Shown here: piece after piece, positions 5,069 to 64,000 of the stretch
Numbering within the stretch: the first letter of the stretch is position 1
How the letters are laid out: every line of letters begins with the position of its first letter
NCBI GenBank assembly: GCA_036172245.1
Contig: JAYWIR010000022.1
Location: 2,852,001 to 2,916,000, forward strand
DNA: 64,000 bases
DNA from: Raillietiella orientalis
Taxonomy: Eukaryota
Direction of reading: 5' to 3'
The notes under the pieces: generated by a model
What the model was told of the DNA's origin: nothing
The model's input: the letters and a program-made list of their open reading frames with translations, nothing else
The model's database searches: none
Translations under genes and position numbers: made by a program

Positions 5069-5114
5069 CTGGGGCAAGGTTAGGAGCCTCGGTGATGAAG
5101 GGGTGGGGGCTTAC

Positions 5115-5226
5115 CAGCTCCTGTTCCTGGTGGAAAGGAGGACAACTTCACGGGGTATCCTCTCCCTCTCCTCCTGGAGGGAGTAGAAGGAGTTCTGTCT
5201 CTGCCAGGGTCGGCCGTAGTTCGAAT
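5115..5226 (-). CDS. Rph: Rabphilin exon 6, linker (DSNYGRPWQRQNSFYSLQEERERIPREVVLLSTRNRS)
   Basis: Long pyrimidine acceptor tgttcttctcccttcctccag|, donor TG|gtaagc; 112 nt, phase 1-2. Confidence 0.8.
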
Positions 5227-6020
5227 CTGGAGGAAGGGAGAAGAACAGACAGAGGTCCCGTGACGAATTGGATCTTCGGGCATCTGCACGCGCGCGCGTT
5301 CTCGGGACGACTCGCCCGGCGTCCCTCCCCCCTCCTCCCCAGGCGGCGTGCTCGTGGTTACCGGAACAGCCGCCTTCGATCGCGCTCTCGTTTTCCTCTC
5401 GCTCTGGAGAGCGCTGCTCAGTTTCTGACGATGCGGAAAATTCCCGGGAGGGCTCGGTCGCGCGCGGGAACGCTCTCCTTGCTGCTGCTGCTGTTGAGCT
5501 GCATCCCAAAGGATAGCCTCAAGGGATCTTCTCCCGTGAGAAGGAACCAGCGGGCCGAGAAAGACCGTACTTCGCGGATGTGGGGGAGGGGAGGCACCGA
5601 GGCACCGTCGCAGTCAGGACGTCGTTCCGGGCGTCGAGGAGAGCCGCCGCACAGCAGGAACCCCCTCTTCCCTTCTCCCGCTGCTTCCAGCCTGCTCAGC
5701 TCACAGGAGACGTTCCCGAAGGCCGCGCGATTGACCGCCTTTCCTCGCAGAGGTCCCTCTTCCACCTCTTCCTTTCTCGCGAAACGTGGAGCGGTAGCCC
5801 TTGCTGGTGTTCGCTCCCGCCAGTGCACCTCCGCGTTCCCCTGTTCTTTCCGTTCTCGCTGCAGACGGTATTGGACTCTTTCTCCATTTTCCCCTAGCTC
5901 GCGTCCTGTGCCTTCCGGGGAGAACCGTCCCTCCGTTCCGCGGAGCTGCTTCAGGAGATGCGATTCCCGGAAACAAAGGGTCCCGGTCCCGTCGGATTTG
6001 CGAGCTTCCGCTTACAAATT

Positions 6021-10351: not shown

Positions 10352-10532
10352 GCAAGCATTTCGTTTCGGTGCGATCTGAGAAAAGAGAGCACTCCACGAA
10401 GGCTTTCGAAGTGAGTGGACGTAAGGCTATTGACGGACAAGCAAGGGATGGGGACGGAAGATGAATGCAGCTGGAAGACGAGCCAACAGTCACGCGGGAA
10501 ATGGAGGGACATGCCCCTTGCTCCCCAATGCG
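10352..10532. repeat. ~180-bp direct repeat B, copy 1
   Basis: Highly similar to 13235-13416 (cgtttcggtgcgatctgagaaaagagagcactc...ggaagacgagccaacagtcacgcgggaaa). Confidence 0.92.
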
Positions 10533-10933
10533 CCCACCTCACTCCTCGCCGCGATATCCATTCCGGTTTGCAAGAAGTTTCCTGCCCGAACTTCAGAAAA
10601 GGTCAGGGTCTCCAGAAACCCCTTCCATCCTCTTTCTTTTTTCTCGGACGCTTCGGAAGCCCAGCTCTCTTTCCGGAGTGCATGCTTCGCCATCGGCAGT
10701 CTGGAGCACGAGATGTGCCGCAACCATCGTAGTGTACTTGCGCTGTTCCTGGAGGAGGGCTTTCCTCAAAAGCAGGGGAGGGGGGAAGAGAAGAAGGGGT
10801 GGAGGTGGCGGGGGAGACGCTCGCTGCGTAGTAGTGCTGAAGCAACCGGCCGTCGCAGTGGCAGTCTTCCCCCTCCCTCTCGACTGCACATTCCGGTGGG
10901 CGATCCGGACACGGCCCGTACAACTCGTGGACA

Positions 10934-11606
10934 CTAAACACTCAACAACCGCCTAGGGGCTCATAAAGCTCTTTGACGCTGTCCACTCCACCCGTGGCGT
11001 GCGACTCTTCACGATAAGGGATGCCCGGGAGAAGAGGACGCTGCTATGAATCCAGGAAGGCTCCGGAGGAAAGAGTCCGTTCCCCTTACCCTCTGGAGGG
11101 GTCCCCCAAAGGAGATCACTCATTTCTTCTTCGAAGGGAATCCAGAAAGGATCCGCTCCTCGTTCCCTCCTTCTCTGAAGAGAACCCCGGAGGGATGCTT
11201 CCCAGTTTCTCTGAAGGATGCTCCCCGAAGGGAGCAACGCGCTCCTGACGCTCTGGAGAGGCGACCCCCCGCAAGGGGGGTATCAAACAGATCCATGGTA
11301 CGCGATACCAGAAAGCGGCTCCATTTCTCAACCGGAACTTCTTGGTTCCTGGAAGGGCCTCGGAAGGTTAAATCCCGATCCCGGCCTGTCGAAGGGGGCA
11401 TCATCGGCTCCTCCTAGTGTCCATTGCTGCACCCAAAGCCCGCAGGCCAGCCAGCGCCATCCCGGGGGGAGGAGGAGGAGGAGGGAGTTTCTCGAAACCC
11501 ACGACGTGCCCATTTCTCGGCGTCGATACTTCCCCCAGGCGGGATTCGAACCGGCAACGCCTGGCGGGTGCCACGTGCGGACGCCGTAGCCACACGGCCG
11601 CCAACA
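10934..11606 (-). mobile_element. tRNA-derived SINE-like element with hairpin-array body, copy 1 (uninterrupted)
   Basis: Minus-strand A-box-like GGCCGTGTGGCTACGGCG (11582-11599) and B-box GGTTCGAATCCC (11541-11552); body collinear with 56595-56940 + 62386-62705 + 63526-63605. Confidence 0.72.
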
Positions 11607-13234: not shown

Positions 13235-13416
13235 GCAAGTATTGCGTTTCGGTGCGATCTGAGAAAAGAGAGCACTCTACGAGAGCTTTCCAAGTGAGTG
13301 GACGTAAGGCTATCGACGAACAAGCAAGGGATGGGGACGGAAGATGAATGCAACTGGAAGACGAGCCAACAGTCACGCGGGAAACGGAGGGACGTGCCCT
13401 TGCTCCCTGCAATGCG
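13235..13416. repeat. ~180-bp direct repeat B, copy 2
   Basis: See 10352-10532. Confidence 0.92.
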
Positions 13417-15829
13417 TGTCAGACAGGAATGCGTTGAGAAACAACTTTCATGAGAACGGCAGGTGCATTTCGTGCGGACAAACTCGTGCGAGAGGCGAGG
13501 AGGAGGGGGGGGAGTCCACCGATCGGCCACCGACCAACTGCTGCTTTGGGATTGCCGTCAAAAGCGAAAACCCCTCTCCCTATGGCCTCTGAACGTGGAC
13601 TTTGGCTGATCAGGCTCGGGAGGAGCGAGCACGCCCAGGAAGCGTGAGTCCGGTTGCGTAAGAGCGCATCATCACGAGGGAGGAAGTGAAGCATCCGGAC
13701 AAAATCCACGGGGTCTGTGGATGCCCTCGGGAATTCTCGACGACGTATGCCACGGGACGAAGCGACCCCGGCTCAAGTCGTACCTTCACAGTCGGGCTGC
13801 CCCGGGGGAAGACGACTAGGGTCAGCCTTTCAGGCCCGTGCGGCGTATCCGCGCCAATCGAGGGAGCTGCCTTGTCCTGGAGGGAAGGGAAACTGCCGCT
13901 TCCGGAGGCGAGGCCGGGGGCTCGAACCGCGGGGCGGCTCTGCCTTCTGGCCGCGGACCAGCTAATGCCGAAAATAAAGCTCAGCAGTTCTGCGGATGCC
14001 CAGCTGGCAGCGCCTTCGGGATCCGGTTGAGACGCACTTCTCGGGCCGGGTTTGAAGGCTCTCCGTCGCGGATCAGTCAGTCGCCGGGCTGGAGCGCCGA
14101 GTCGGAGGCTGAACCCCTCTTCCTTATGAGAGACGACACGGAACCCTTATCGTTCGCCCGTCGCGGATCAGTTAGTTGGGCCAGCTCGTGGCGACGACCG
14201 AAGGCACATGCGCCTGCGCGAAGGCGGGAGAAGCTTCTCTTTTTTTCTCTCGTGGGAGGCCGCGCGCGCGCTCGGCGCGACGCTGTGCAGTCGACTGCGG
14301 GGGACATTTCGAAGCGGGGCGCAGTGGTGCACCCTTGCTCGCGGTTTCGTCCTCCTGGTTCGGCGGCGAGCGGTGGAGAAAGAAGTGAGAGGAATTCGGC
14401 TACGGGGCGCATCATCCGTCCCGTCTCTGCAGCGAACCGAAAAGGTGCAGGCCCTCCTTGGGGTCGGGGCTCTCCTGCCGGAAACGGACGACCGCACGAG
14501 CCGGGTGGCCTTCCCCCGACTACCAGGACTGACGCGCGCGCGCGCGTGACCTGCTGTAGGCAGGCACGGTGGCACCCCCAGCAGTGGCCTCCAGGATCCG
14601 AAAATCCGAAACCTCAGAGATGGCGCGACTGCCTCCTTGACGACGGAAGGATCCTCGCTTTCCCGTCTCCTCTTCCCGGGTCGCACGCGCGTGTCCCCCT
14701 GGGGACGGCTTCTTCAAGGACCCTTAATCCCTTTGTCCCGGCCTCCGCTCAGCGGGGTCATTTCCGACGCTGCGCGTGCTCATCAGGACCCCTCAGGAAG
14801 GAGCCTCCTGCTTTCCCGGGAGGGCGGGAGGAGAGCAGGAAGAGAGTGGCGGCTCCCCGGTTGCTGCTGCATCCGCAGCTGCCTCTGTGGGGTTTCCCAT
14901 GCAGCCTTTTGAGGAGGTCCTCGGGCGAAGTCGTCCGTGGGCTTACCCCCTCCCCTCCCCGACCTAGGGGTTGACTTTCAGAGGTCATTTCCCCTCCCCC
15001 CTCATGTCATTACGGGAAGAGGCTCCCCCCGCGCGCTAAGGAGGCGTTGTGCCCCGAAGCCGGAAGAAAAACAACGGGTTCCTTGTTCGTGGGTCCTTGG
15101 GGGTGGGGTGGGAAGGGGGAAGGCATCCCCTGGCTGCCTTGGAGCTCCAGGCCCTTCTGGGAAAGGAGATCCCTTGGACAGGGGAAAAAGGGAGAGGCGG
15201 GAGGGGGAGGAAGCGGTCAAGGATGGGCACGCCCAAGTCCGCCAGCGCCGTGAGCAGCAAGCAGGCGCGACTCTTCCCCGCTCCGAAGAGGGGGACAAGG
15301 AAGAGGGGGAACCCACCTTTCGAGGGACATGAGCGTGCGTCCCTCCTCCTCCTCCTTCTCGGGGCGGGGGGGAGGAGAGGAAAGGGAGAGGAGGAAAGGG
15401 CGTCGGTGTCAAAACCCGTCCTCGTGACGGAAAGGGGGCGCCGTCGCCTCACCTTTGTTCTGCCCTCTTGTCGGTGCCCAATGAGGCGCCGCCGATGTTG
15501 TCTTCTCTGTCTTCGTCAGAGGATTCCTCCAGGTTGTCCTGACAATCGAGCTCCGCTGGAAGAGAAAGGGCGAGGAGAGCTCGTTTCTGTCGGTCGGGGG
15601 TGGCCGACGTACGGCATCATCCGGTTCCTCCCCTCATTCTTCCTCCGAAGAACCCCTCCCTGCCCCCCTTCGCGGAAACCCAGGGTCCCCCGGGAGCTGG
15701 CGCCCCCCCTCTTGCCGCCTCTCCTCGAGCAATCCCTCCTTGAGGCTGCAAGCCTGCAGGAACCGGAAGCGGCTCTCCCCCCTTGCGCGTGCACGCGCGG
15801 GGGAGGCGCACTGGATGGTGACGGCGGCG

Positions 15830-19800: not shown

Positions 19801-20454
19801 CAAGAGCAGCTTCACATTCGGCAGGCAGCACAGACCACAAACGGAACAGACAGAAGAGACGTCAGGCATTCCTGTTGAACGTAGGGAAGAAGAGACGAAC
19901 GATTTGTCACCCATAATTGTCTCTGGGCCTTCTGTTTCAGCTGCTCTCACCACCTGTGTGTGGGCTGAACCTATGAGGGCCATCAGAACACTCCGCGCAC
20001 ACATTCGCGAAGGAAACGCTTTCCCACTCTTGGGAAAAGCTGCTGATTAAAAACAGGGGAAGTGAGCGCGCTCTTCAGCATCCACTCAGCACGTGCACGC
20101 GTTCTTCCTTCGTTTCTTCTGGTTTCAGGACTTGAGTTTTTCTTGACGTGCACACTCACTCTCGAAACGTGAGGGGAGAAACGCTATCCCCTCTCAGGGA
20201 ACTCCAGCTGCTCTTCCCCGGTTAGGTGCAGTCCAATTCACCGCAGGGATCCACTTCGGACCATCCCACTTCTTCCACTCTCACTCTCTCTCTTCATCGT
20301 CAACTGGCTGATGCCCTCCCTAAAGGACTTCGCCGGGAATCCTTGGAATTCCCTTGAAAGAAGTGGAGATGTCCCGGGAGTTCCACGACAGCCCCACGCT
20401 CCTCTCGAAGTGTCAGGGCTCGGCGATGCAAATGCGCTTCCTTGGGCCATATCA

Positions 20455-20515
20455 TGGGATGCACGCCTCCGCCTCTAGACCAGCGGGAGTGTGAGCCTTA
20501 GACCGCTCGATCAAA
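20455..20515 (-). repeat. Decayed tRNA-Leu-like head (SINE or pseudo-tRNA fragment)
   Basis: Minus strand CGAGCGGTCTAAGGC...GGAGGCGTG resembles the tRNA-Leu D-arm and variable-arm end; T-arm/B-box missing. Confidence 0.35.
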
Positions 20516-21166
20516 TGCTCGGTGCTCTTCTTCCGAGATCAACCTGATGGACAAAAGGACGGGAGGATGGCTCACGTCCGATGCTCTTGATTCAATACCG
20601 ATTCAGCAACAGAAGCAAAACCCAAGCGCTTTGGATCACTTCAGCAACGTGCGAGTAATCCACTCCCCTGGACAAACGAAAATCTCAATTCCTGTACAGC
20701 TTCTCGACCAGAGAGAGGAAACTCTACAGTTTCCTTCGGTGGAACGCTTGTTGGATTTCCTGCTCATTTGGAACAGCAGCCATGGCGACGGACATGGATG
20801 GATGCATGTTCGTTTAGGCACTCCGAAACTTTCGTGTGTTGGAATTGCAGGACTACTTGTTGAGGATCACGTGTTGGAGTTCCTAAAGACGTGTCAAAGA
20901 GTAGTTGGAGCGTTTGGTGAACTCACAAAGAGCATTGCGTGTCCCTTACCTATAGAGGCAACAAAATCTCTTACTTGAGCACACCTAAACGTCACGCGCA
21001 TAATTCACAACCTGCTGTGTCAGTTGTGGCCTCATACCAGCTTTTAATGCATAATATATCCATGCAAACCTGTATGTACAAATGCAGATTTTATGCACGT
21101 TCTGTGAATTTTTTCTTTAAGAAAGCTTTCTTATTCTTCTGGCAGCAACCATATTAGATAAAGATA

Positions 21167-21187
21167 TAGATAGATAGATAGATAGAT
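21167..21187. repeat. (GATA)n microsatellite
   Basis: Direct inspection. Confidence 0.85.
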
Positions 21188-22398
21188 ATGCATACATTCA
21201 TTTGTATGCATGTCTGTTACATATGTCAATCATAAATATGAGTGTTTGCTTACCACTTGCCACTCTTTGAGCATAATAATGATGTGATCTCAAAGCAGAC
21301 GGGGAGTGCACAGGAAGTTACAAGAGTTTCTTCAGAGGTGCGTGCTACAAAAGGAATTCTTGCAGTTGGTATCCATGGCCACTCTGTGGAACTGTGGCAC
21401 TGCTAACCTATGACTTCTCACTTGGTCTTGTTCAGCCCTGATTGAATCTTTGTTTCGGAGAGCGCTTCTTTCGAAGTGGCTCAAGGACGTCTTGGAAACG
21501 GCACATTTCCCTGCGTAGCACATTTACCTTCTTAGCTGCAACATCGTGTGCAGCGGGACTCAAGGGACCAGAGTTTTTTACAGTAACCCTCTTTTAGCAG
21601 CAAAGTGACAAGTTTACACTCTTGGGTTCCAGTTTCCAACGGGGAGCATTACATAACCCCCCACTCGCACTGTGCTGAGTGCGTGGAGGGAGCGCGGACG
21701 GTCCAATCAATCTGAAGCGATCCCTTTATCATCAAATTTTCATGTAGCTCAATGAGCTGCCAACTATCTCATTTGCGGGTGCAAATAGATTTCTTTCTTT
21801 CTTTCTTGCAGGGATGGGGAGGAGTAGGATCCTTTGTGAGATGTGAGCGCGGTTCGGTGTAAACCTGTTTATCTTTCCCCTTGGTCCATTGAGAGTCCTA
21901 CTCGAAAAGCGAGTTCCTTCCCTCCACGGGAGTTGGGACCAAACATCAAACCAGCTTCAGCTAAGACTTTCCGAGAGCGCACCTTCCGTCGGCTTCGTCA
22001 ACGCACAGTGGAAAATCCGTTTGCGGCGAACGTTTCCCCGTTTTCTCCGAGTGATTACTTTTCGGGAGAAGCAGCACCGAGGATGTAGCCAGTTGCAAGG
22101 ACCGTTCCCAAACCTTGTGCACACAAGAGGGAATCCCAATACAGAGACGCACACAAGAGAAACGAGCAACCGCCATAATAACACGGAAAATTGCAGTTCA
22201 TGGTTCGTGGTTTCTTAAATTCAAAGATGGTCCTCGGCCACCTTTCCCGATCAGGGGGAGGGGGAACGGGAAAAGAGCTTAGCGTTTAGCTTCACGCAAA
22301 CCTAAACCGACTCAACTTTTGCTAAGGTCTCTATTTTTGTTTTTGTTTTTTTCAGAACGGGAAGAAGTCAAAGGCATTGAATTTTTCAACGATTGTAC

Positions 22399-22528
22399 CT
22401 TATTGCAGTCCCGACACAGCAGCCCACAGGATGCTAGGAGGCGGAAGTGTTCTCCGCAAAGAGCGCACTGATTCAAACCATTTCCTTTGCTGTTTTTCTT
22501 CATATTCTCCATCCGTTCCACGAGGTAA
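22399..22528 (-). CDS. Rph: Rabphilin exon 3 (YLVERMENMKKNSKGNGLNQCALCGEHFRLLASCGLLCRDCNK), first half of FYVE-like Zn finger
   Basis: Acceptor gtgctacag|, donor AAG|gtacaa; 130 nt, phase 2-0; two CxxC motifs and the GNG..QC.LCGE motif. Confidence 0.95.
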
Positions 22529-22552
22529 CTGTAGCACGAAACACACATTTAA

Positions 22553-22570
22553 ATATATATATATATATAT
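22553..22570. repeat. (AT)n microsatellite just upstream of the exon 3 acceptor
   Basis: Direct inspection. Confidence 0.85.
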
Positions 22571-25217
22571 CCCTTACAAGCAATGAAATTAGCGATGATC
22601 AGCATGTTTGAACAACTACAATCATTTCGTCTTGCGTGTATTTTCGGCACACTTCGGAAGTTGTCCTCAGTTGGTGCGCCATCATCCCCTGTGCGGCTTT
22701 TCGGCCATCACGGCACTTTTATTGAGACTCCTTTCTGTATGTTTTGCAAATCTGATAACGCGACATGGAAAAGTCACACCGTTTTTATTTATGTAGTGCT
22801 CATTACGGTTACGTATTCCGTATGTACAAAAGAAATTGCGTCACCGGTCGAACAGACAATCGGCTCAGCGAATTGGACACAAGCAATCCGAGGGAATTTC
22901 CTTTTCTTTTTTTCTTTTCGAAGGAAGGGGGAGGAGGGGAGAGGGAAGGGGGGAAACTGGTGTTTATCTCATACATGGATCGTCAAGGAAGCGTGAAGGA
23001 AAGCAGTTCATTAGGGTGTGCATGGCTTATTAAAGCACTTCCTATTGGGTTTCCATGGAGCCCGAGAGGCTCGAGGACTTGGCTGGACGTCGAGAAGACC
23101 TCAATGAAAACGAAAAGCAGTTCAAGTGAAAGTGACGAAGGGACCCTCCCTCACCAAGTTCTTGTTTTTCCTAAAAGAAACACTACCAGAAAGTACCTAA
23201 AACAAAGGGTCTACGTGTTAAGAATCCAGAAATCTGGAGAGAAAAAGAGAGAGAGAGAGAGAGAGAAACTGAAGATGTGCGCCTCCCTGAAACGGGAAAA
23301 CTCTGTCGGTACATGACTTAAATGCTCTCTTGGTTCTTTGCTGTCAGTTTTCTTGACGAATGGACAAGGTTGGCAGACGAAGGATGTCTCGGTGTGAAAC
23401 GAACTACCGAAGAAAACGTCCATCCACTAAGGGATAGGTTTCGGAGGGGGACCGAGGAGACGGAGATGATCTGTTCGACGTATCCTGCATAATGAGAAAT
23501 GTCCCGAAGTCTCATATTTCCGGAAGAAGCGCAATGACATTATGGGGAGCGTGAAACGTCCTTGAAGGACGACTCTCTTCCCCACACAGCAAGCGGTGCC
23601 TAAGAGATGCGGAATTCAGAGTGCAAAGAATGAAGGTCCACCCGTTCAACCTCCCATCGATCGGAATGATGAAACTTAGCAGAAGCGTTCTGGATCTCAC
23701 TTTCTCTCTGCTCACGATGTGTTTGTAACACCTCAATGTGTTACGATGTGTTTGGTGAGTCGTCGTTATTTCCCAAGGATTCTCGATGCATTCTGAGATC
23801 GTGATATGGATGAACTCCCTAGTGGAACCAGGACACCAAAGGACGTGAGTGATCTTGTGAAAAACAGTGATCAAACAGTAATCCTGTGTACCACTGGACC
23901 AGCAAATTCTTCCCAGACTGATTATCTGGACGCTGAGATGGGCGCGAGAGGCTCATCGAAGTTGAAATTCCAACTTGCCCCACGCCGAGCTACCAAGAAC
24001 GATCTCATCTGAAAATCCAGGTGTGATGCAAGTGTTTTAGGAGCATCGAGACAATTTGGAATCAAAGCAGATAATCGGATAGCTAGTTATGGCCTCTTGG
24101 CGACGGCAGGATACAAACTCCTCCGGGTGGAAAACCCGCGTGGTCCTAGAGCACCACGGCAACCGTGTGGAAGTCGGTGCTCTTGCAGGTTGCTCGAAAG
24201 CGCTACCCTATCTCTTTGAGGGATTCCGGAGCGCCAGAAGCGAGAGTCAAGAGTCTTTCCGGTGCCAGCAACAAGAGCCCAACCTCGGTAGCAGATCGAC
24301 GAATCGTGAAACGGGTACACACTTGGGGGAGAGGGGAAAAACGGGGGGGAAGACGAAGTATTTTTTGAGAACACCTCGCCTGATTCATCACTGATCCGAA
24401 GAAGGTGAACATGTGGAAAACATCTCTTCCAAACACGATCGGTGCAAAATCTAAGTCAAGAAACACGCAAGCTGGTGCAAGAAGCGAGCACCCGGGATAG
24501 TAATCTGAGCGGAGTTCTCCGGGGACCGCTTTGAACGGTTTTAATCCTCTCTCTTTGCCTGCTTATCCCACAGATCCTAGAGTTACGAATGAAGTGAAGA
24601 AGAAGAGAACCTACATGCTAGCGGAATGATGCAAGAAAAACAGACTTGAGCTATCTGGGGAAACTCTTCCTTTCTCCTTCCTTCTTTTCCTTTTTCAGAA
24701 ATTTTTCCAAAATGGAAGCTGGAGATCCTGGAGTCCTGGAGATTTCCCAGGAATCAAAGAGGCAAATGAATTGCTCTCCCAACGGTGATGGTTTCCTTTT
24801 ATTAATTTTTGCCAATTATTCTCGGAACCAAGCATCCGCCAGTCGGTTTCACAGTCGCAATCTGCAGCTTCAAACATGGAAAGCATCGCCTTTCAGCCTC
24901 TTGCCTGTCTGGTCCTTGAAATGTCTCATTCCCTAGATGTTTCATATCACTTTCCTCTAATCTAATCACCCAGTTTTGCCTACAGAGTTGTAACCGGATA
25001 ATGGGGTATTTATTTTTAAGGCACAGTGCTTCGCTTCTGGCCTATTTTTGTGATTATATATATGTAACCTCCTCTTATACAAACACGAATTAATGGCGCC
25101 TATTTCCAGCATGAAGAACTAGGAAACCATCTATATTGTGATGGGGGAGCGAGGAAGGGAGGGGAGGGGGGTGAAGAATAAAAAATGGAAAACCCTTATC
25201 GATACGATAGAAACCCT

Positions 25218-25221
<4 letters not shown>

Positions 25222-25248
<27 letters not shown>
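25222..25248. repeat. (TG)n microsatellite
   Basis: Direct inspection. Confidence 0.9.
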
Positions 25249-28200
25249 TTGTTTGTTCCCGGTCATTATTCTCTCTTGATTTCTCTTTTTAATTAAGAGC
25301 CTTCGAGATTAACATGTGGTACTGCCTCTGTTTCGGCTGCTCCATCCTATCAGGTGTCGTCAAATGCAATCCATCGGATATCTGACTCAGACAAAAGGTT
25401 TGAAAACGTTTCTGAATCTATAGAAATGCTCAATAAAGATGCTGCTTTCTGTTTCAATGATGGTAATAAATACTTCGTTATCTCAGCTACTGAAGCATTA
25501 TTCTCTTCAAAAAAAAAAACTGGGAGTCTTTTTTTCTTTTTCTTCTTCCTTTTTTTTCCAGCATGAAATCAATGAGCTAATCGCCTTGAAGAAAAAATCC
25601 TCTCATTCAGGCCGCTCTCCCGAGACCATTGCTTCGGCTCTCTGAAGAAACGAAATTTCCAAGAAGAACTCTCTTCAGTTAAGTATGGCAATTATCTATT
25701 GCAATTAAAGATGGTCTTACCTCAGTCTTGAGAACGGTAATAACCACACTTTATTTTCGAGATTAAAACTCTGATTCAAAGGAGGCGATCGTTTGAAATG
25801 GGCTCTGCAATGTTATGCACCCAGGGATCACTGAGAGGAGGTTTTGCAGAAGTCTGATTAGGTTTCGGTGGCTGCCCACTGCTTAAATCCCTGATGAATA
25901 TTCAGCATCCTCGCAAGAAGATGGAAGTGTGGTGAAATTCTTCCTTTGTTTCGGTAACAGAACTGAGTTCAGCGCGTGCTCAAAACATTATCTGGTTGAA
26001 CAGGGTAGATCCGAGATCGGTGGAGAAATACTGCTGGAAATCATCATCCAGCATGCCGGAGAATGATTCATTTCCCGCATATCTTTGGAGACTCGCTTGC
26101 TTATCTCCCTTCTGCTTTAAGATTCGCATTCGCTGCTTTAAGATCGAGTATTGTAGTGGATTTTCGACTTTCGACTCTTGCAAGATCCTAAATCTGCAAT
26201 AAAAGATCGCTTTTTTCTTAACAGTGCGCTCCTCCGTTCTGCAGCTGACAATCACGGCCACTTGAAAATATTGGCTTTTTCCCGACCATAAAAATCTAGC
26301 TTTAGAGTCGTGTTAGAGGAAGGCCTAGATCAGGGTCCAGATCATCGTGGTCTTCGCGGTACACTCACCTTCCAAACACTTTCCTTAACAAGCAGATACA
26401 TAGTGCAGACGTAATCGCTTTCTCGGAATCGTATCACAACTTTCTCACCTCCGGAACCTGCGTTCCTTTCCATCTTCCAACTGCATTATTCCCCTCAGGG
26501 GCAACTAAGGAGTAATTTATCCTCCGGTAGAAGAACACGCAGGTTCCGGAAATTCCACCCTATCCTGGATGATGGACTTTTTACATGTGCAAACCCGTTC
26601 CCGCGCAGTTGCTTCATATACTTTTGCATTCGTTATTTGTGCGTACAAAAAGCCCTCGATGCTGCAAAGAAGCGTGGAAGAACAAAAGTCGGAAACGGAA
26701 TGGCAGAAAACCATGTCACATAGGGTCAAAAAAACGAGAAGGGATCCTTCCGAGCACAGTACAACGAATTCACTAACGAAAGGAAATGCACTGCTGCGAT
26801 GAATGTGGAAGTCGCTTCTGTTTATCACTACATCCATATCACGAGACCAGTAGAGCTTGGGACTTGCCCCACTAAATTACGATGCACGAAAAGTGGATGT
26901 TTCGCCTTCCCTCTGCGGAGTGATCGCCCACTTTCGAGTGCTCGGAGCTCGCAAGCACGGAAAAAACGTAGGAAACCCTTCTGCCAAATCCACCGGAATG
27001 AACACGAATATTTCTTCGTGGGTTGCATTCAGACTTTTGGCAGCAAGTTCCGCGGAACCGTCTTCCAGGGAGCGAGGCTGGACCCCGGTGAGCAAGCCCA
27101 AGATAGATCGTTGAGCCGGAAATTGAACACATGAGAACAGTGTGGCTGGCTCAGCTGCACTACGTGGGGGTGTACTTTCTTTTTCGTGTTGCTGCTGTTT
27201 TTACATTGCATCGATTCGAACCCACCTCTAGTAGACTATGCAGATTTCCTTGTTTTGTGTTGTTTTCTTCTTCAAATTCCCATTTATCCAGACAGTATGT
27301 TCAAATGGATTCAAGTCATAATGATCTTCGAGCTTATTTCCAAGGTATTCCATTTCCTTCGCCTCCTCCTCCAGCTGCTCTTATCGAGGACTTTCGATGG
27401 GGGGGCGAAGCGCTATTATCGGAGATGTGGGAAAACGCAAGCACCTAGCAGACATTCGGAAATCGGGGCCGAACTCACTCGTTCTCACTCGCGTACCGCA
27501 GTCCAAGCAGTGCCAGTTCTGCACGCAGAAATGTCATTTCCGGATTACCCGGCTGAAAAATAACCCACTTCCTGTTTAAAACGGCGCATCAGTTAATCAC
27601 ATCTATAGATCACTCTCCTTCGAATTTTTCTCATGGACAGCTCGGGATCAGTCATGCATCATGAGTCACTGCGCACACTCTTTCCGACATTTTTTCTTCT
27701 GCATCCCAAAGTCCCTTGAAGTTCCCCAAGTGCGTGTGTCACATGGAGAGAGAAGAAATGCCGAACTGTCTCTTAAGTTCGGCAGACCGCGCCAAACCGA
27801 ACGAGTTATCTGATGAATCGGCTGCAGATGCTGCCACAATTGCATGAGCCGCGAAACGGAAGGGCATGACAGTGGTCTTACCGGAGGACCACAACATCCC
27901 ACACCTCCTTCTGGTTTTGAAGTCCCCGAGCAAGAAGCTCTTCATACGGCGCGGCAGGAACAATCGATGATTCGCAGGCAACTTCGTCTGCAAATTCCTC
28001 CTTCGTCTAGCATGAGAAAAATAGGGGCCAGTGCCGAACCGGATCCCGGAAATGGTCTCCAGTAATCTTGTGGAATTTCGCTCCGTAACTCTCCAAACGC
28101 ATTGAACATCTGAAGGGGCTGCACGGAGCCACGATGCAGTTTGGAAATGAATCTTCCTATGCAGCCCCGTGAACAGCAACACATGGAATGGACCAGCAGA

Positions 28201-29929
28201 TGAGCGAAATCGGATGTTCCCATCAGCTCGCAGCAGCAAGCTGCATAGGATTTGAAGAACCAAGGGATGCCTCACGAAAGCGATCTTCCATCAACAAATG
28301 AGATTTTCCGTTCGCTGGCACGATGCACAGCTGCCGAACTCACAAGCAAAGGACGGGAAAAAAGTGCCTTCTGTTTGGAGTCTTGAGTTCGGGTTTCGAA
28401 CCCTTGAGATGGGGAGATTTAAAAGGAAGAGTCACGTCGACCTGAATTCACATAGGGACATATACAGGGAGAGTCACGTTACAGAGGAAGATGAAGAGAA
28501 TGGTAAGCAGAGAAGCGCATCGTAGTAGGCTGGACCGCGATCCCCTCACGCCGTCCAAGTAGCGCTGCATCTTCCACGGGGATCTTCTATTGCATAAGAG
28601 GAGTGACCTTGTCCACGAGGATTCGAAGAGGAAAGCGTAAATTTTTGGATCAAACGGTGACAACTCGAGAGGTGGCGGTGGAATTTTCGTCAAGCCTCTG
28701 AGAGCAAGGGCATGAGAGGAGACCTAACCAAAAAGGCATCCCTAATTCAAGAACGATAGATCCCGGAGCATATGCAGGCGTGCAGAATTCTGGAGGAAAC
28801 GACGAGGGAAACTTGGTAGACAAAAAGTTGAGGACGAGCAAAAGTGAAACAACGAGGTTCTATGTGCCTGCGGAAGAGTGCACATTGACCTCCGGAACCT
28901 CTTTGATAAAGAAAGATTGCTCAGTTGCTTCTTTATCAAAGAGGAAACAGCGAAAGGCACCCGAGTTCGCGAAGCGCTTTCGTGTCGGGCAGAGCGTCAA
29001 AAAGAACAAACCTGGGTCACAGCGGTCTATGGAGGATCCGAGAAACAAGCGTGCCGTGCCCCCAAAGAGTCACAGAGAGTCGAACAGGAAGTCTTAAAGG
29101 CTCACCGAGAACGGACTTGGAAGAACACGTTAATATCCCCCACGGGATGCTGCTGGTTGGGCAGATAGTTGGATGCAGGATAGAAAACTGCTCGATGAAT
29201 TGTCGGGAATAAAGAAAGCGCTATTTTGGGTGATCAGTTCATACCGAACCCCCCCAAATGCTTCTATCCACTGAAGACTGCAGTGAAGAGCGTTTTTGAG
29301 TCCTAAACTGAGGAGTATTGGAGCATCTCAGATGCTCTCGAAGACTCTCCAAGGAGTCAAAGGTATAGGCACGGCAAAGGGGAGGGAGAGAGAGACTCTG
29401 TATTTCAATCTAGGATCGCTAGCTGGAGCAAACGCATGGGCTCCAAAATGTGCACGAGGAAGCATATCATGGAAAGATGCCTGAAATCTTCATCCTAAGC
29501 AAAGTAAAGAATCTTCAGGAAGACTACGAATCAGATATGAAGAAATCTGCTCCTTGTTCCTTCCTTTTGAGGACTTGAAACCCGAACTCCGCTTCCATTT
29601 CTTGGATTGCAGCCTTGAGCCTGAATGGAACAAGATGTGGCATTGTGAAATGAGAACCAAGATCCTGCTCGCAGCTACGGTAACTCTGGCTGGATGTCAT
29701 TCCACTTGGGAATTACACAACATTGCAAAGCAAACGCCTCCCGCCCGCGGGACGAGACCAGTACCTTCAGTACTTTGCTTACACAACACGGGAGGGGAAA
29801 CACAAGAAACCGAGTCCGAGAAACAGCGCGAACTGCACGGAACTGCAGGATCTTCGACAGCGACCGATCGTGAGGGTAATCCAAGGATGGGCCTGGTTCA
29901 AAATCCCGAACGGTCAAAGTCCCGAAAGA

Positions 29930-30160
29930 TCATACATATAAAAATGAAGGCATTTGCCTATTCTACACAGAATAACATGCGAATTTATTTTAATATACAT
30001 ATTCATATTTATCAATATACATATTATTAACAGTAATATTATTGGAACATATATGTATCAAGATTCAGTGATATACATTTTATCAATACAATTAATGAGT
30101 TTTCGATTATATGTGCTGATACATATATATTTACATATAGATGAATATATAAATTAAAGA
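29930..30160. repeat. AT-rich low-complexity tract
   Basis: ATAT/CATAT-rich run. Confidence 0.75.
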
Positions 30161-31490: not shown

Positions 31491-31634
31491 CCTATTCTTC
31501 TTTGCTCTGCTAGCTCCAGAGCCTCGGCTTTCTTAATGACGGATACGATCGTGTCTTGCTCTTCCTGAGTGAGGTGGTAGTTTTTCCCGTAGGACAGCAT
31601 CCTCGTGCTCTTCACCGACCATCCCGTGCGCAAT
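31491..31634 (-). CDS. Rph: Rabphilin exon 2 (LRTGWSVKSTRMLSYGKNYHLTQEEQDTIVSVIKKAEALELAEQRRI-G), Rab-binding helix SHD1
   Basis: Acceptor ctccaccgtag|, donor GG|gtcagt; 144 nt, phase 2-2; matches the LxTGWSV..LTxEE..I..VI..AE....EQ.RIG consensus; absent from the ORF track. Confidence 0.95.
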
Positions 31635-56594: not shown

Positions 56595-56940
56595 CTAAAT
56601 GCTCAAAAGCCGCCGTTCTCCTGGCGGCTCACGGAGATCTTCACCACTGTCCACGCCACCTGAGGAGGGCGCCTGTGTTCACCCTTCAACTTAGAGGGTG
56701 CCCCGGGAGGGGACCACCCTATGAATCCAGGAAGACCTCGGAGGAAGGGACCCGTTCCTCTTCCTCCTGGGAAGGGAACCCCGGAAGGGTCACCTCTTCT
56801 TCATTCTCTCCGGAGAAGTCGGTCCCCCGGGGGAAGCTACTCCTCATTTCTTCTCCGAAGGGAACCCAGAAAGGATGGGCTCCTGGAATGTCTTCTCCGA
56901 AGAGAGACCCGAAGGGACAATTCCCTGTTTTCTCTATTTT
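56595..56940 (-). mobile_element. SINE-like element copy 2, 3' segment
   Basis: Shares ctgtccac.ccacc, ctatgaatccaggaag and ctcatttcttct.cgaagggaa.ccagaaaggat with 10934-11210. Confidence 0.75.
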
Positions 56941-57111
56941 TCCCAAGACCCACAAGGGGTGGGGTGAATTTATTTACCCTTTTTTTACATTCACACTACA
57001 TTCTCATTCATACCAAAAACTACACTGCACTTCACTAGTGTTTGCTAGAAGTCTGCTTCTTGGGTTCACTGAAAGGTTCACTGCACCTGTGTGACTGGAT
57101 GTCGTTTGTGC

Positions 57112-60100
57112 CTAGATGTTGCCTTCAATTCTTCTCAGGATATGTCGGTAGTTCCAGGTCTGCACTCTTCTACAGTTTCTTATGCCAATCTCTTTCTGGA
57201 TAAGCCCTTTCAGGATTTTCATTGGAGATACGGCGGTCCTGGTGGTCTTCATCATCATCCACCGCACAAGAATGGCAGTGATGAAGAGGGCGATGGTCAT
57301 CCTTACCATTGGATTATAGCAGGGAACATTTCTGTTTCTTGGAACATCCTTGCCAAGATTGCCATGGTCGATGTGGTGGGCAGCCCGATAACCCTTTTCA
57401 GGATGTGCCACTCTGGTTGCATCGTGGGACAGATCAAATGTTTCCACATGCTCTGCAGATTTCTTCCTCCCTTCTGCCCGTAAAGAGCCTCATTCTGGAT
57501 CCACTCAGGATCCCTCCATGATAGAACATCAGGAGGTTATCCAGAGTGTCCAGTGGCAGGTCATTCCTCCAGAGCGTCGTTCCAATCGCCAGCGGGTTGA
57601 ATCCATTATTACCGTGGCGATCGGTGGCTTTTTGAAGGGCACTGGTGTCCTTGTTTTCCTCGACTATTAGTCGGCGTAGATTTCTCGTGGTTACCCTGGA
57701 CCACACGAGGTCGTTGTAGTTTTTCCACACTTCTCGGGTCCTATGGGTGAATCTGAGAGATTCTTTGGATGTAGCGGAGTACTCGGGAATGATGTAGGTA
57801 TTCCTGCCGTCTCCATGTCTCAGTATCTCTCAAAGTAACCCTAGACCACTGGTTGATCCAGCTCCTCGTATTTTCAGGTATGGGTAGCATCCACGGGATA
57901 ACCAAGATGGATTCCTCCTGGCAGAGTTCTTTGCTCCTAGGTATGATCTTCAGCTGATACCTTTGTACCAGTTGTTGCTTTCTTCTCCATATTGGGTCGA
58001 TGGTGGCCCATTCGCCCACTTGGCCGAGCAGTACAGTCATCAGTCCCCGTGAGTTGTATTCCAACAACGAGTAGTCCCTGTGCGCTGCATACGGCCAGTC
58101 GTCCCAGTTCTTAGACATGTCCAGGATCTGTCGCACGTCCATGGTGTCCACAGCATGTGTAAGCGATTTCATCCCGGTACCGCCTTCTTCCTTAGGACGA
58201 CACAGTGGCTTGAGGCGGACTCTCAGTCTATAGCCTCCCCATAAAGTTTTCCTCTGAAGCTTTTCCACCTCTCTTTTCTTATCTTCATACATTCTGTAGA
58301 AGGCCGCCCCAAAAAGTATCTTCGGAAGGAATACTCCATTCCAAAGATTGGCCCTCCTCTTCATGTTAAAGTCCGAACGGGTATACTTCGCTCCTTTTGT
58401 GCCGTTTTCCCCAGGATTTCCTTCTACAGTAATTAAGACGATGATGCGTCACCAAGGTGGACACCCAGGTACTTGACTTGATCCACCGCTCGGAATCCTT
58501 TCCTCGTGAGTATGGATAGGTCGAGGATTCCGACGAGCAAAAGTTGGCTTTTGGGGGCATTGATTTTTAAGGCCAATCCTCTTTCCATGAGTTCCACCAC
58601 ATCCAGAAACCCTCGCTGATCCCTCTCCCCTTTTAAGAAGAGAAGATCATCTGCGTAGGCTAGATGGGTGAGCCGCTGGTCGTCCATGTTGATTCCATGG
58701 AGGTATCCACTTCTCTCGATGAATGATGAGAGGGCCTCCATGTAGATGACAAACAGCATCGGACTGAGAGCATCGCCCTGGCGGACTCCACGCTCCATCC
58801 GGATGGCTGTTGTCTCTTACCCATTGATCTTTATGCGAAAGTGTCGCTCTTCAAGTGCCATCTTCACGAAGTTGCTGAATTGTTCCGGGAGGCCGTCTTC
58901 CTAGAATTTTCAGCAGCATCCCATGGTCCACCGTATCGAAAGCCTTTTCCATGTCAGTGAAGCCCACTACCAAGTTCTCGCCGATATATCGGCTGAGTTC
59001 AATGGTAGCTTGGGCACACTTGACATTGTCCGACATGTGGCGTCCGGGCACCGCACATGTCTGGGTCGGATCGGAGAGATCAGCTTTGGCATGACCTTGC
59101 CTAAGCGGTTGGCCCAGATCTTCGCCAACCACTTGGCATCGGAGTTGAGGATCGAGATTGGCCTCCATTGGGTAACCTGAGTTAGGTCACCTCCTTTCAG
59201 CAGCAATCACATCCTACTCTCGTAGAAGGATTCCGTTAGTCGTCCTTCTTGCCGGATGCAGAGTGTCAGCTGGTGGAACAAACGCTGGTAGGCATGCAAG
59301 TACCGCTGATAGTGAGAGATGGGGACACTATCAGGGCCCGCTGCCACATCCTTGCGAAGGTCCTTGAACGCAGCTTTCACTTCTTCTTCCAGAATCTTCC
59401 GATGGTTTTCGGTCGTGCTTCTTTCCAGGCGTCTCAGGAACATGTCTTGATATAACGGGCACAGATGTTTGCGTTGGAAATGGTCCATGTAATGCCTTTG
59501 GAAGGCTTCCGCGATGTCCTCCGATGGGTGCCTAGTGTGTCCATCGTACTGGATACAGAAGATGTCTGTTGCCAGATTCTTCTTCTCCAGTACGCCGACT
59601 TCTCCTTTAACATTTTGGAAGACATACCGACTCTCATACTGTTCCCAGTACTTCCAGAGGGAGCGATCTTGGATGTTCAGCTCCCGGTGCGCTTCCTTCC
59701 TCAGTCGCCTGTCACCGAACTGCATGTTGCAGAAGAGGTGCACTCGATGTTTTAAGCTCTCCCAGTCGGCGACTCTGCTGAGAATCGCCTCGATGACTTC
59801 TTGGTGTCAGGGTAGCGTCTCGAACCAGGCGGGCATGCTGATGAGCTCTGCCCTTGTAGCCTTCTTTCACCTAGGGTTTTCAGTCCGCAGGAAAAACCTC
59901 ATCAACGGGTGGTCGGACAGAACGGGGGGCGTGTCACAAAACCCGAGGATGCGGTTCCCTATATCGGAGCTGTAGAGGACGTGGTCGATCGGCTTGTGGC
60001 TGGCTGCTAGTCACAGAAGCCCGAATTCGTCGGACAGCCGCCGATACGCCGTCCTGCCTCTTGCATGGATGATTTCGTCCAGGATATTGAAATCTCCCAC

Positions 60101-60502
60101 GATGATCACGATGTCCTTCGGTGCGACCTTTTGCTGGAGTACTCCGTGGAGCGCTTCCGCACACTGATACTTTTGTTGGTGGGATCCGTAAACGTTCACC
60201 AGGAACAGGTGAACGTTTGCGGACCAGGACATTCTTACGCCGACGATTCTTCCAGGCATGGGGCAGGTTTCCAGAATGGTGTGAGCGAACTCGTTCTTTA
60301 TTGAGATCGCCATACCCATGGTGTTCCTCTGTCTCTCGCTGGCGAACAGCTATGCGTTCAATCGCCTTTCCATCTCGAGGCTGATCTGTTGCCCCATCAC
60401 GTGGATTTCTTGCAGGCACACTATGTCTTGATGTGCGATGGTTCGCACAATTCTTTTTCTCTTTGCCTGGTCGGTGAGTCCGTTGACATTCCAGGAGGCC
60501 AT
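57112..60502 (-). pseudogene. LINE ORF2 (APE endonuclease + reverse transcriptase + C-terminal Cys/His region), multiple frameshifts and stops
   Basis: MASWNVNGL, LQEIH, VGDFN, SDH (APE); WRPISILNSD, DMEKAFDTV, GVRQGDALSPMLF, AYADD, KYLGV (RT); L..P..EGG.G and CRACG downstream. Confidence 0.92.
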
Positions 60503-60512
60503 CTTAACTCTC

Positions 60513-62266
60513 CTAGCGGTGGACAAGGACGAGGCCAATAAGGAATTTATTTCTTGGCCTTCCTGAGCTCCTTCTGTAGAGAAGACCGTTGCAGTCTCCC
60601 GGAAGAGAAGGCTTCTCGCTACCGGCGGCGCTCTCCGTGCCGGTGAAGTCGGTAAATTCGACCTCCTCGGTCGAGTGCTCGGCCTTGGCGACCGTTTTGC
60701 GTGGAAGCGTTTCCAGGCTCACCATCGCACAGGAATTCTCCTTAACGTCGAGAAGCTTGTTCTCCAGCTTCTCGCGTTGGACCACTTCCACAATTTGGTT
60801 GATGTCCTGGATCTCGCAGATTCGCCGCAGTTGTTCCTGCTGCTCCTCGCTTGGTTCCTATCGGACCTCCTTCGTCAGCTTCGCCACTTCCTCGGTTATT
60901 TGCAGGGTTTCCTGCGTCACCGGGGCTGGCTCTGCTACTTCCATTCTTTCGCCTTCCTCTGCATTTTCCTTTGGTTCGGGCTTCTCGGAGGGTTCTTGCT
61001 ACTTGGTGAGCGACCTCCTCTTACCTTTCTTCCTCACTTCAGCGAAGCCGTCCGCCGAAACTAGGACGACCTCCCTCGCCTTTCTTGGTCTCTCCACCTG
61101 TTTTTGAGGCTTTTCTGCCTCCGCTTGAATTTTTCCCTTACGGGGGAGAGTCCACACATCATACGCCAATTGGTGTACTCCGGACAACTTCACCTCGCGT
61201 GGCCTGTAGCCTTGCAAAAGGCGCACACCTCAGGCTGTTGGCAATTCCTGACTTGGTGTCCCTGCTTGCCGCAGCGGAAGCACCGAGATTTCGGACAAGC
61301 ACTGACCCTATGGCCAAAGTGCTTGCACCCAGTACAAAACACCGGCTGCTGCCTATACCGGATGTAGACTTCCTGGGAGTCCCCATCAATGTGGGCGAGA
61401 TCCAGAATCTTCGCCTCCTCGTGCAACTTAATTTTGGCGATGACATTGCCCGAAAAGATCTTGCCAGAGAAGTTCTGGAACTCCACTTCCAGGACTTCCC
61501 TATATTTGGACAAAAAGGTCCAGATTGCCTGCTTGTTTGTGGTGATGCAGACGCCACCTAGAAACACCGTCGTATACGGCATCTCGCCAATACCACGGAC
61601 CATCCTCCCTTGTATGTTAATGCCCTTTTCAATCAGGGCTTCGGTTAGTGGTTCACTATAGGTGTACACCGTGAACCCCGATCGTACTTGGAATGATAGC
61701 CTGGTCGCGATCAAAATCGACATTCTCCTTGTATAGGGCCAGGTAAACTTCCCTGATATTATTTATACGGATAAGTTCAGTCTTGAACGTGATCGGTTTT
61801 ACGTTTGGACTTATCCATATGATCGGCTCGTCAATGTTTTCTATTTTGCCGCTTTCCGGCTTCCCGAATTTCCTCTGTGGCTGGGTGATTGAACTCCCAG
61901 CCGCCACCGCCGCGTACGAAAATGGTCACGCCGTCGCACCCGCACAAGATGGCGTCGCGTCCTGAGAGCTCCCCGCCACCGGGAGCTCGTAGGCCTAGCC
62001 GTCGCGCAGGCAACCATCGGCGACCCTGTCGCACACTCGCCGGACGCTACCTCCATCTGTTGGGGCGACTCCGGCCTCTCCTCCGTCACCGCTTTCATCC
62101 TCGCGGCGGGCTGGTAGGCTCCCGCCGCTGGGTTGGGACGCAAGTCCTCCACCGTGGTGCCGCTGCTGTTGGCGGGGATTGTCCTCAGCTGCACTGTCAC
62201 TAGTGGGTGGACGGAGTCACTGTTCACTAACTTTGCACTGTTAGTTTGCTCGCTCGGGGCACACAA
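60513..62266 (-). pseudogene. LINE ORF1 (gag-like, three CCHC-type zinc knuckles), frameshifted
   Basis: FCTGCKHFGHRVSACP-RCFRCGKQGHQVRNC-CAFCKATGHAR in ORF 61190-61723, flanked by broken reading frames; ends approximate. Confidence 0.85.
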
Positions 62267-62385
62267 AAATTGCCTCGGCAGTGGTATTACACACTGCCTT
62301 GGCGGGATATTGGGTAAAGTTTTTAACTAGCAATAATCGCGCCTCAGTTGCCTTCCTCAGCTACGATATTGCCCGTGCACAAGGC

Positions 62386-62705
62386 TTCTCTATTTTCTCT
62401 AAAGGGTTGCTCCCTGAGGGAAGCAGCGCGCTTCTTCACGCTCTGGAGAGATGGCATCAATCCACCAGCTCCATGGTACGTATAGAGGGAGTCCTCCCCG
62501 AGGAAGGAGGAGGAGGACGGCTTCCATTTTCACAACCGGAGGGGCATCCCGAAAGGCTACTTGGTTCCTGGAAGGACCTCGAAGAGTCAACCTTCAGTAC
62601 CGGCCAAGTCAGCGGGGCATCCCGCTTCGACCAGGGCCGCATCCCAATAGGACAAGTGGCGTCATCTGTCGGAGGGACTCGAAACCCACGACGCATCCAT
62701 TTCTC
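62386..62705 (-). mobile_element. SINE-like element copy 2, middle segment
   Basis: Shares acgctctggagag, tccatggtacg, cttggttcctggaagg and ctcgaaacccacgacg..ccatttctc with 11205-11518. Confidence 0.78.
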
Positions 62706-63525
62706 GGGAATTTTCCACCCGATCACGCCAGGGCATTTATTTCACAAAAAAAATAAACCAGTTGAGAACAAAAGTCCCCAACTGTTTGTTTTCCAGCCGA
62801 CGACAGCAATAAACAAAAGGGAGGGTTCTCCGGCACGCAGGCCAGGACAACAGAGAGCCCGGAATGGGGGTGAAGACAACAACAAAAAAAAAAACAAAGT
62901 GGATGGGATCTTTGATCTTTGGTTTCGCTGCTTATTCGCCAGTACAAAAAAAAAAAAAGCAACAAGAAAGTTACAGAGTGAATGGAAATGGGGAATATGA
63001 AAAAATAGTAATAATAATAGAGGGAGGGAGGGGACAAGGGTCACCGGGTCCGCCGTTTCAAACCGTCCATCAACCTACGATGGATGCCGGTGATTTCCTC
63101 CTTGGTTTCCTCTTCAGACCAGGTGAGGCCACCTTGTAGTAGGCCTTCCTGATGTAGTTGGCTGCCATCCTGGTGACCCCCCTTCGCTGCGTGGGGGTTT
63201 CCAGCACCTGTCGGGCTGCCACGATGGAGCGGATGCAACCCGTGGTTGCAACAACGCATCCGTCGAGAGGCCTCTCGGTACGACGAACCGCCTCAACACG
63301 TCTCAGGCGGTGTCCTGGAGCAGGAGTGCTGTTGGCAGCCTTTGCCACAGTTCCGGGAGGGCACCTCATTCCAGAAGCAGATGCAGCGGGATCGACTCCG
63401 TTGACCCGCCTTTGGCACGACAGTTCGGGGAGGCAACCCTTCCGGAAATTCGGTGCCGTTGCTCGCTGCACTGGAATCCCCGGTGGATGAAGCAGAGCAG
63501 CGCGGCTGCTTCCAGGCAAGGGGGA
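62706..63525 (-). mobile_element. Short 5'-truncated LINE 3' fragment nested in SINE-like copy 2
   Basis: LLCFIHRGFQCSEQRHRISG..NCRAK..ESIPLHLLLE resembles the ORF2 C-terminal Cys/His region; T-rich 3' UTR; AATAAA at 62736-62741; 8-bp TSD CATTTCTC at 62698-62705 and 63526-63533. Confidence 0.78.
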
Positions 63526-63605
63526 CATTTCTCTGGAGTCGATCCTTCCCCCGGGGGGGATCCGCACACGCGACGCGCGGAGACTGCCGCAGCCACGCGG
63601 CCTCC
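63526..63605 (-). mobile_element. SINE-like element copy 2, degenerate tRNA-like head
   Basis: catttctc.gg.gtcgat.cttccccc.gg.gggat and gccg.agccac.cggcc match 11511-11599; B-box decayed. Confidence 0.65.
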
Positions 63606-64000
63606 GGCGCGGGCCGCCTGGCTACGGCCGGCTGCTTCCGGGTGCTTCTGGAGCGTGCGATGAGCGCCACTTCGGGTGTTTCTTGCAGGAGAAGCGGCTT
63701 GGGCATCGCCACACGCCTGTCAGCCACGCCGCCGAACCGGGATGCGTTGTTCCCCTCGACCGGTTCCCAGCATGCGCTCAGCTGTGGGGCGATGGAGGAT
63801 GAGAGATGAAGCTCTTCGGCCGAGCTTTCCCCTTCCGCCCTGTCAAGGGCCGGACTGCTTCACCTGCATCGAGTCGGAGAAAGTGTGCTCCTGGGGGCTG
63901 GGCCTACTGATGCGAGAGAAGATCGCAAGAGACTCACGGACAACCACGCGTGTTTTCCGTCCACGCGAGAGGGAGTTGGCCAGTTTTGCATGGGCAGACC

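Follow-up and report, generated by a model that had tools for sequence, protein, structure and literature searches.

A 64,000-nt stretch of the Raillietiella orientalis genome (GCA_036172245.1, contig JAYWIR010000022.1, positions 2,852,001-2,916,000 of the forward strand), hereafter the window, carries at about 11601-10938 of its minus strand a copy of a SINE-like repeat with a tRNA-like head and a modular body (copy 1). Copy 1 probably represents a single, old and dead insertion, now decayed, of a non-autonomous SINE-like repeat that is mobile, dispersed and non-coding. An earlier note on this DNA had described it as a tRNA-headed RNA whose body is a periodic array of twin tetraloop hairpins under structural selection; the features of copy 1 exist, though they are weaker than first described. 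The element is an ordinary retroposon, but an unusually long and quasi-oligomeric, modular one, and its SINE-like identity is reasonable, short of full proof. The result amounts to a repeat annotation, that of a long SINE-like family with a palindrome-bearing modular body, and as such serves masking and the dating of insertions. Feature coordinates are collected in Table 1.

Table 1. Coordinates in the window of the two copies of the SINE-like repeat, their parts and the insertions in copy 2, with the basis of each assignment.
Feature	Position	Strand	Basis or remark
Copy 1 head, tRNA-like Pol III-type, GC-rich	11535..11601	-	5' limit approximate, from copy 2 alignment
Copy 1 body, irregular 5' half, ~250 nt	11284..11534	-	sequence, alignment
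Copy 1 unit array, seven units	11000..11283	-	unit alignment, covariance-model hits, hairpin list
Copy 1 units	11283-11237, 11236-11197, 11196-11155, 11154-11117	-	unit alignment
Copy 1 units, continued	11116-11078, 11077-11039, 11038-11000	-	unit alignment
Copy 1 3' region, end GGCGGTTGTTGAGTGTTTAG	10938..10999	-	alignment with copy 2
Possible 3' extension of copy 1, uncertain: C-rich tract, then GCTTTTGAGGAAAGCCCT	10756..10937	-	weak matches
Copy 2 head remnant, B box lost	63526..63604	-	alignment
Insertion 2 in copy 2, 820-bp retro-insertion	62706..63525	-	sequence
Copy 2 middle part, 65% identical to 11520-11203	62387..62705	-	alignment
Insertion 1 in copy 2, 5.4-kb non-LTR retrotransposon	56941..62386	-	domains, junctions read
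Copy 2 3' part: units c, d, extra unit, e, f, g, tail ...GCTTTTGAGCATTTAGCAACCCCC	56597..56940	-	alignment
Copy 1 10952-11208 = copy 2 56620-56930			alignment match
Copy 1 11206-11520 = copy 2 62394-62707			alignment match
Copy 1 11511-11572 = copy 2 63526-63588			alignment match, head remnant

The description of a minus-strand, SINE-like sequence with a Pol III-type head and a modular body is borne out by two collinear copies with unrelated flanks, found within 64 kb, and by the lack of any overlapping ORF with a Pfam domain. ORFs in the element region are short and none of them bears such a domain; the element is thus short and non-coding as SINEs are, with a length of at least 660 nt that lies at the upper limit of known families. 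Copy 2 (63604-56597), found by BLAST and nhmmer, has the same orientation, lies 46 kb away and is collinear and, when aligned, 65-67% identical. This second copy, previously placed at 56595-56940 and 62386-62705, is real, and it also includes a head remnant (63526-63588) that had been missed. The 2 kb before and the 2.4 kb after copy 1 are without match near copy 2. A search of the window for further copies with nhmmer, using a single sequence, a two-copy profile and a unit profile, returned weak hits only (E of at least 0.047, for example around 5100-5550), and a scan of metagenome_contigs and genome_contigs with two conserved-block patterns of the element gave 0 loci throughout.

The head of copy 1 contains an exact B box, GGTTCGAATCC, at 11552-11542 of the minus strand. 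Exact B-box matches number 3 in the window against 0.89 expected, and this one is meaningful because it is placed at the 5' end of the sequence common to both copies. An A-box-like word with 2 mismatches, CGGCCGTGTGG, lies 48 nt upstream (11600-11590, minus strand), but the frequency of such words is not above chance, with 264 matches for 276 expected. ARAGORN called no tRNA for the copy 1 head, Rfam at E<=10 yielded no tRNA match to it and only five weak matches to unrelated families, and the B box has been lost from the head of copy 2. What likeness the head has to a tRNA comes from the B box and the A-box-like word. At the gathering score, Rfam matched no part of the element, the sole hit in the window being U4 at 62248-62386. 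A second exact B-box match, GGTTCGAGCCC, is located at 13918-13928 (minus strand) in GC-rich non-coding DNA with surroundings unlike the element.

The sense strand of copy 1 is free of TTTT for 825 nt past the head, where shuffled sequences average 3.2 occurrences and 26 of 500 have none; the first TTTT is found at 10771, inside GCTTTTGAGGAAAGCCCT. In the body of copy 2, no sense-strand TTTT occurs before 56608, where the first one falls at the site matching GGCGGTTGTTGAGTGTTTAG. This absence is compatible with Pol III read-through, of which it is weak evidence.

Within the body, the irregular 5' half of copy 1 holds a (CCT)n tract (11484-11468), one unit-like piece (11368-11330) and the blocks CGTCGTGGGTTTCGAG and CCTTCCAGGAACCAAG, which are conserved with copy 2. 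The units of copy 1 measure 38-47 nt, seven of them consecutive (11283-11000) and one apart, the unit-like piece of the 5' half, giving seven to eight diverged units. Each is composed of two abutting short palindromes and a purine-rich linker, and units were found at all seven positions at which a recurring ~40-nt module had originally been noticed. The 18 units of both copies yield the consensus nnnTCC-TTCC-GGGGnn-CCC-TTCA-GAG-AAnAAGGnG, with a mean column identity of 44%. When the 64-kb window was searched with a covariance model of the unit, 13 hits reached E<=0.05. Every one of them is on the minus strand and within the two copies (6 in copy 1, 7 in copy 2; copy 1 unit b reached only E 0.16), and weaker hits elsewhere in the window are at noise level. 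Since these units served to train the model, all that the hits show is that the window has nothing else like them. Tandem Repeats Finder reported no array in the element, only (GGA)n, and the peaks seen by autocorrelation (copy 1, lags 39-40 and 80-81; copy 2, lag 42) have z values of only 2-3.4.

Units at the same position in copy 1 and copy 2 are 67% identical (8 pairs); the mean over the remaining 145 unit pairs is 46%. The array is therefore old: it had already diverged in the common ancestor of the copies and predates the insertion of both. Unit number varies, with copy 2 having one extra 48-nt unit (56838-56791). This unit and three CTTCGG sites agree with what had been said of copy 2, that it keeps CUUCGG sites and has extra modules. 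The modules are largely what the earlier note had set against its own proposal, a decayed minisatellite.

The clear likeness between the copies stops at ...TTGAG..TTTAG, near position 10938 (copy 1) and position 56597 (copy 2). Some 120-180 nt beyond this point there are weak collinear matches, to 56493-56410 in copy 2 (E 0.02 and 0.054, the search space being tiny), and global alignment of the putative 3' extension is poor, at 41% identity. These matches suggest that the element may run to about 10756 in copy 1 and 56410 in copy 2, that is, ~0.85 kb. The tail of copy 2, ...GCTTTTGAGCATTTAGCAACCCCC, is followed by a C-rich tract and then by A7; this short A run is found in copy 2 only. Copy 1 may thus end either at 10938 or at about 10756, and its 3' limit is uncertain. 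Neither copy has recognizable target-site duplications, and no terminal inverted repeats were seen on reading both ends of the element. Upstream of the copy 2 head (63604-63628, minus strand) the first 17 nt of the head recur in inverted form, complementary at 15/17 positions, which makes a 5'-end palindrome that is absent from copy 1. The copy 1 region is bracketed by a pair of 174-bp direct repeats (10352-10525 and 13235-13407) that are 93% identical and are much younger than the SINE-like copies.

Copy 2 has been interrupted twice, both times at GAGAAA(T) motifs of the repeat and in the repeat's own orientation. Insertion 1 begins with a full-length U4 snRNA copy (62386-62248; Rfam 91.6 bits, model positions 1-138 of 138), its minus-strand ORFs contain zf-CCHC, Exo_endo_phos and RVT_1 domains, and it is flanked by a 10-bp duplication, AAAATAGAGA (62396-62387 and 56940-56931). 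It is a nearly full-length L1/Tx1-like LINE, with an ORF1 zinc knuckle, an endonuclease and a reverse transcriptase, situated away from any U4 gene array. A protein search with the ORF that follows the reverse transcriptase found no match, and an atlas search recovered generic reverse-transcriptase clusters only. Insertion 2 has an AATAAA about 20 nt before its 3' end, is flanked by a duplication of GAGAAATG (63533-63526 and 62705-62698) and has no Pfam match; candidates for its identity are a processed pseudogene and a LINE from a different family that lacks its 5' part. No nucleotide likeness was found between the element and either insertion, or between the two insertions. The surrounding DNA is eukaryotic, with U4 snRNA present and ~60% GC, and Pfam identified no family in 59 ORFs of the window, hand-picked among 132 that measure at least 150 aa from stop to stop. 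Within this ~0.6-GC window there is a 12-kb block of low GC (20001-32000; 0.44-0.49), whose tested ORFs of at least 150 aa are without a Pfam domain and which could represent either another isochore or an insertion of younger age.

The hairpins that the earlier note quotes, TGCTCCC-TTCG-GGGAGCA (11236-11219) and TTCTC-TTCA-GAGAA (11184-11171), are present on the minus strand. The exception it had pointed out, loops that read as GNRA on the opposite strand, is there too: the hairpin at 11280-11265 reads GCAA on the plus strand. We counted hairpins whose loop is 4 nt long and whose stem has at least 3 bp, using dinucleotide shuffles as the control. Copy 1 has 20 against 11.9±3.5 in shuffles (maximum 23), a modest excess, and the two parts of copy 2 have 9 against 5.7±2.2 and 17 against 7.5±2.8. 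Most stems are 3 bp long. C(TNCG)G occurs on the minus strand 4 times in copy 1 and 1 and 4 times in the parts of copy 2, for expectations of 1.2, 0.5 and 0.6 (counts reached by 6/300, 121/300 and 1/300 shuffles); its reverse complement occurs 1, 0 and 1 times, leaving 9 minus-strand sites against 2. This strand bias arises because the units descend from one ancestor. One of the four sites in copy 1 lies outside the array, so that C(UNCG)G occupies 3/14 hairpin positions of the seven-unit run. An array of exceptionally stable UNCG tetraloop hairpins, as first envisaged, is hard to reconcile with such a minority and with stems that are mostly 3 bp. Nor is there special support for deriving the other loops from these by CpG decay, as CpG is not depleted: its observed/expected ratio is 0.67-0.99 in 4-kb bins across the window and 0.89 in the bin of the element.

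Folding of the whole array as RNA gave z values against shuffles of -0.20 (minus strand) and -0.84 (plus strand) for copy 1 and of -0.81 and -0.36 for copy 2, and in the minimum-energy folds most twin hairpins are replaced by longer-range pairings between pyrimidine-rich and purine-rich tracts. When base pairs were limited to spans of 20 or 30 nt, the copy 1 array reached z values of -2.3 and -1.9 on the minus strand and -2.1 and -2.2 on the plus strand (span 20 and span 30, in that order), and the copy 2 array -1.2 and -2.3 on the minus strand and -1.7 and -1.6 on the plus strand; the 5' half of copy 1, at +0.9 and +1.4 on the minus strand, folds no better than shuffles. Hairpins are thus in slight excess locally, and to a similar degree on both strands, as palindromes in DNA would produce and an RNA-specific structure would not. 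None of these results indicates a role of the hairpins beyond their survival from that ancestry.

Covariation was assessed on a sequence-based alignment of the units with two stems of 6 and 3 pairs. Of the cells in this alignment, 70.6% are paired, where shuffles give 66.8±1.7 (reached by 12/500), 13 cells have changed on both sides, against 7.5±2.0 (6/500), and the covariation score is 0.202, against 0.166 (21/500). The given stem register is the best, registers slid along the alignment pairing at most 59.4% of cells. An alignment of 13 units fitted to the model is 72.8% paired against 68.5%, and its values on the three measures were reached by 20, 7 and 17 of 500 shuffles. In the tool's own trials, related sequences under no constraint attain such covariation values in a sizeable share, and in our reading the figures confirm that the palindromes exist and do not speak for selection. 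In stem 1, whose conserved core is only T·G, C-G, C-G, the three outer pairs are open in 5/10, 5/11 and 5/14 of the units with letters at both positions.

Comparison of same-position units between copy 1 and copy 2 provided 57 scored pair cells, a test of low power with two copies only. The cells that are paired and unchanged in both copies number 26; 9 are still paired after a one-sided change, 5 that pair in copy 1 no longer do so in copy 2, 3 are paired in copy 2 alone (one of them changed on both sides) and 14 are unpaired in both. Not one of the 57 was kept paired through a two-sided change. Identity between the copies is 77% in stems, 73% in loops and 52% in linkers, a contrast to be given little weight since the linker columns are the worst aligned.

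Could the twin hairpins nevertheless have been selected in a Pol III-transcribed RNA, perhaps because they form a multivalent protein-binding scaffold or are what the proteins of a partner LINE recognize? Such an RNA would account for palindrome cores that are the best-conserved columns among units sharing only 46% identity, for C(TNCG)G enriched on the minus strand only, for two-sided changes in excess of shuffles in both alignments (6/500 and 7/500) and for a body whose sense strand lacks TTTT. The structural selection originally put forward is however not supported by the measurements above. Global folding equals that of shuffles and dissolves most of the twin hairpins, both strands show the same local excess, stems are mostly 3 bp, the outer pairs of stem 1 are open in a third to a half of the informative units, and C(UNCG)G is confined to 3/14 loops of the copy 1 run. 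The covariation is not significant, falling within the range of unconstrained relatives, no two-sided change with pairing kept is seen between the copies (0/57, at the low power of two copies), and descent of the units from one ancestor accounts for the bias of the loops to one strand. We consider selection on such an RNA rather unlikely.

Doubts can also be raised about the retroposon itself. It could instead be a non-autonomous repeat of another kind, derived from a DNA transposon or carrying a minisatellite about the genome as Mariner-N4_AMi of crocodilians would. Target duplications and a clear tail were not found, ARAGORN and Rfam do not call the head a tRNA, and the B box could be coincidental, as an exact match is expected 0.89 times per window by chance; moreover, the favoured crocodilian landing pad of related LINEs is a DNA transposon, according to the available part of the source (PMC4494074). 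This origin appears unlikely, given that no terminal inverted repeats are seen at the two ends, that the B box lies exactly at the 5' end of the common sequence with an A-box-like word 48 nt upstream, and that the Mariner-N4_AMi target word is absent from the element. Less credible still is an immobile, local segmental duplicate of ordinary non-coding DNA: with only two copies visible in the window, and both in the same orientation, one might think of it, but the likeness ends at the element borders, the flanking 2 kb and 2.4 kb being without match near copy 2.

The SINE-like retroposon thus remains the preferred reading, and its history may be proposed as follows. A master element would have consisted of a tRNA-like Pol III promoter head and a long body with an internal run of ~40-nt units, each with two short palindromes, CC-TTCN-GG and CYC-TTCR-GAG, and a purine-rich linker. 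The run most likely arose in the master by tandem duplication of one palindrome-bearing unit, and as the unit comparison shows, the units had strongly diverged before both copies inserted. After insertion, the copies would have decayed neutrally, which is consistent with the data without being proved by them. The linker motif GAGAAA(T) was later struck by retro-insertions, two of them in copy 2 and one of these the U4-headed LINE. The hairpins would then be inherited palindromes, equal on both DNA strands, with no demonstrated role as an RNA device.

Some observations lean towards constraint on the palindromes, namely the 13 two-sided changes for 7.5±2.0 in shuffles, the best register, and the higher identity between the copies in stems and loops than in linkers. 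The cores of the palindromes could conceivably have been kept in masters, together with the GAGAAA(T) linker, as candidate binding or cutting motifs for the proteins of snRNA-associated L1/Tx1-like LINEs, in a paired system whereby the repeat is mobilized via its hairpin units and offers the LINEs safe landing sites. We regard this as improbable. If the units are nonetheless recognition sites common to the repeat and to the LINEs landing there, they would provide a testable case of mutual shaping between a non-autonomous element and target-preferring LINEs.

The landing of LINEs in an older repeat has a parallel in crocodilians, where Tx1 LINEs (Tx1-Mar) and SINEU prefer the abundant and old Mariner-N4_AMi, as related in the available part of Kojima 2015 (PMC4494074). 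Judged from that part, both are old non-autonomous repeats struck by LINE-type insertions at set motifs, in the present case twice in copy 2 at GAGAAA(T). Mariner-N4_AMi is a DNA transposon, however, while the element has a putative Pol III-type head. The Mariner-N4_AMi target word AGGTTCCCATCAGCAT is absent from the element and has 2 matches with 3 mismatches elsewhere in the window, for 0.46 expected. A ~40-nt stem-loop is also predicted for the Vhc subdomain of V-SINEs, which is reported in arthropod SINEs too (PMC4758252, available sections). The body of the element holds a stem-loop-type piece of this length, but Vhc is one hairpin, more than 80% identical across phyla, and the element has a diverged tandem run; this comparison is with the description given in those sections.

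The literature consulted describes no SINE with this ~40-nt unit, the accessible portion of an Ixodes repeat paper (PMC12914980) contains nothing bearing on the element, and the family may already be catalogued in Dfam or Repbase. SINEs in general consist of a head, a body and a tail, with consensus lengths of 75-662 nt in SINEBase (PMC3531059, in the part available). Going by this partial account, the element resembles tRNA-derived SINEs in its putative Pol III-type 5' head with a B box in copy 1, its non-coding body without a recognized source, its probably dispersed copies, two of them in the window, and its lack of an ORF. It differs from them in a length of at least 660 nt, at or above the top of the range, in a head without an ARAGORN or Rfam tRNA call, and in a tail and target duplications that were not found. 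The closest counterpart to its body is in the same source, where CHRS (CHR-2) is presented as a 'quasioligomer' SINE with a degenerate ~20-nt motif repeated more than ten times. Compared by description, the unit of the element is longer, at ~40 nt (two ~20-nt palindromic halves plus a linker) against ~20 nt, but both have a short degenerate motif in tandem in the body and a copy number that varies between variants. By the precedent of CHRS, as far as the available text describes it, a SINE body made of tandem units is of a known kind.
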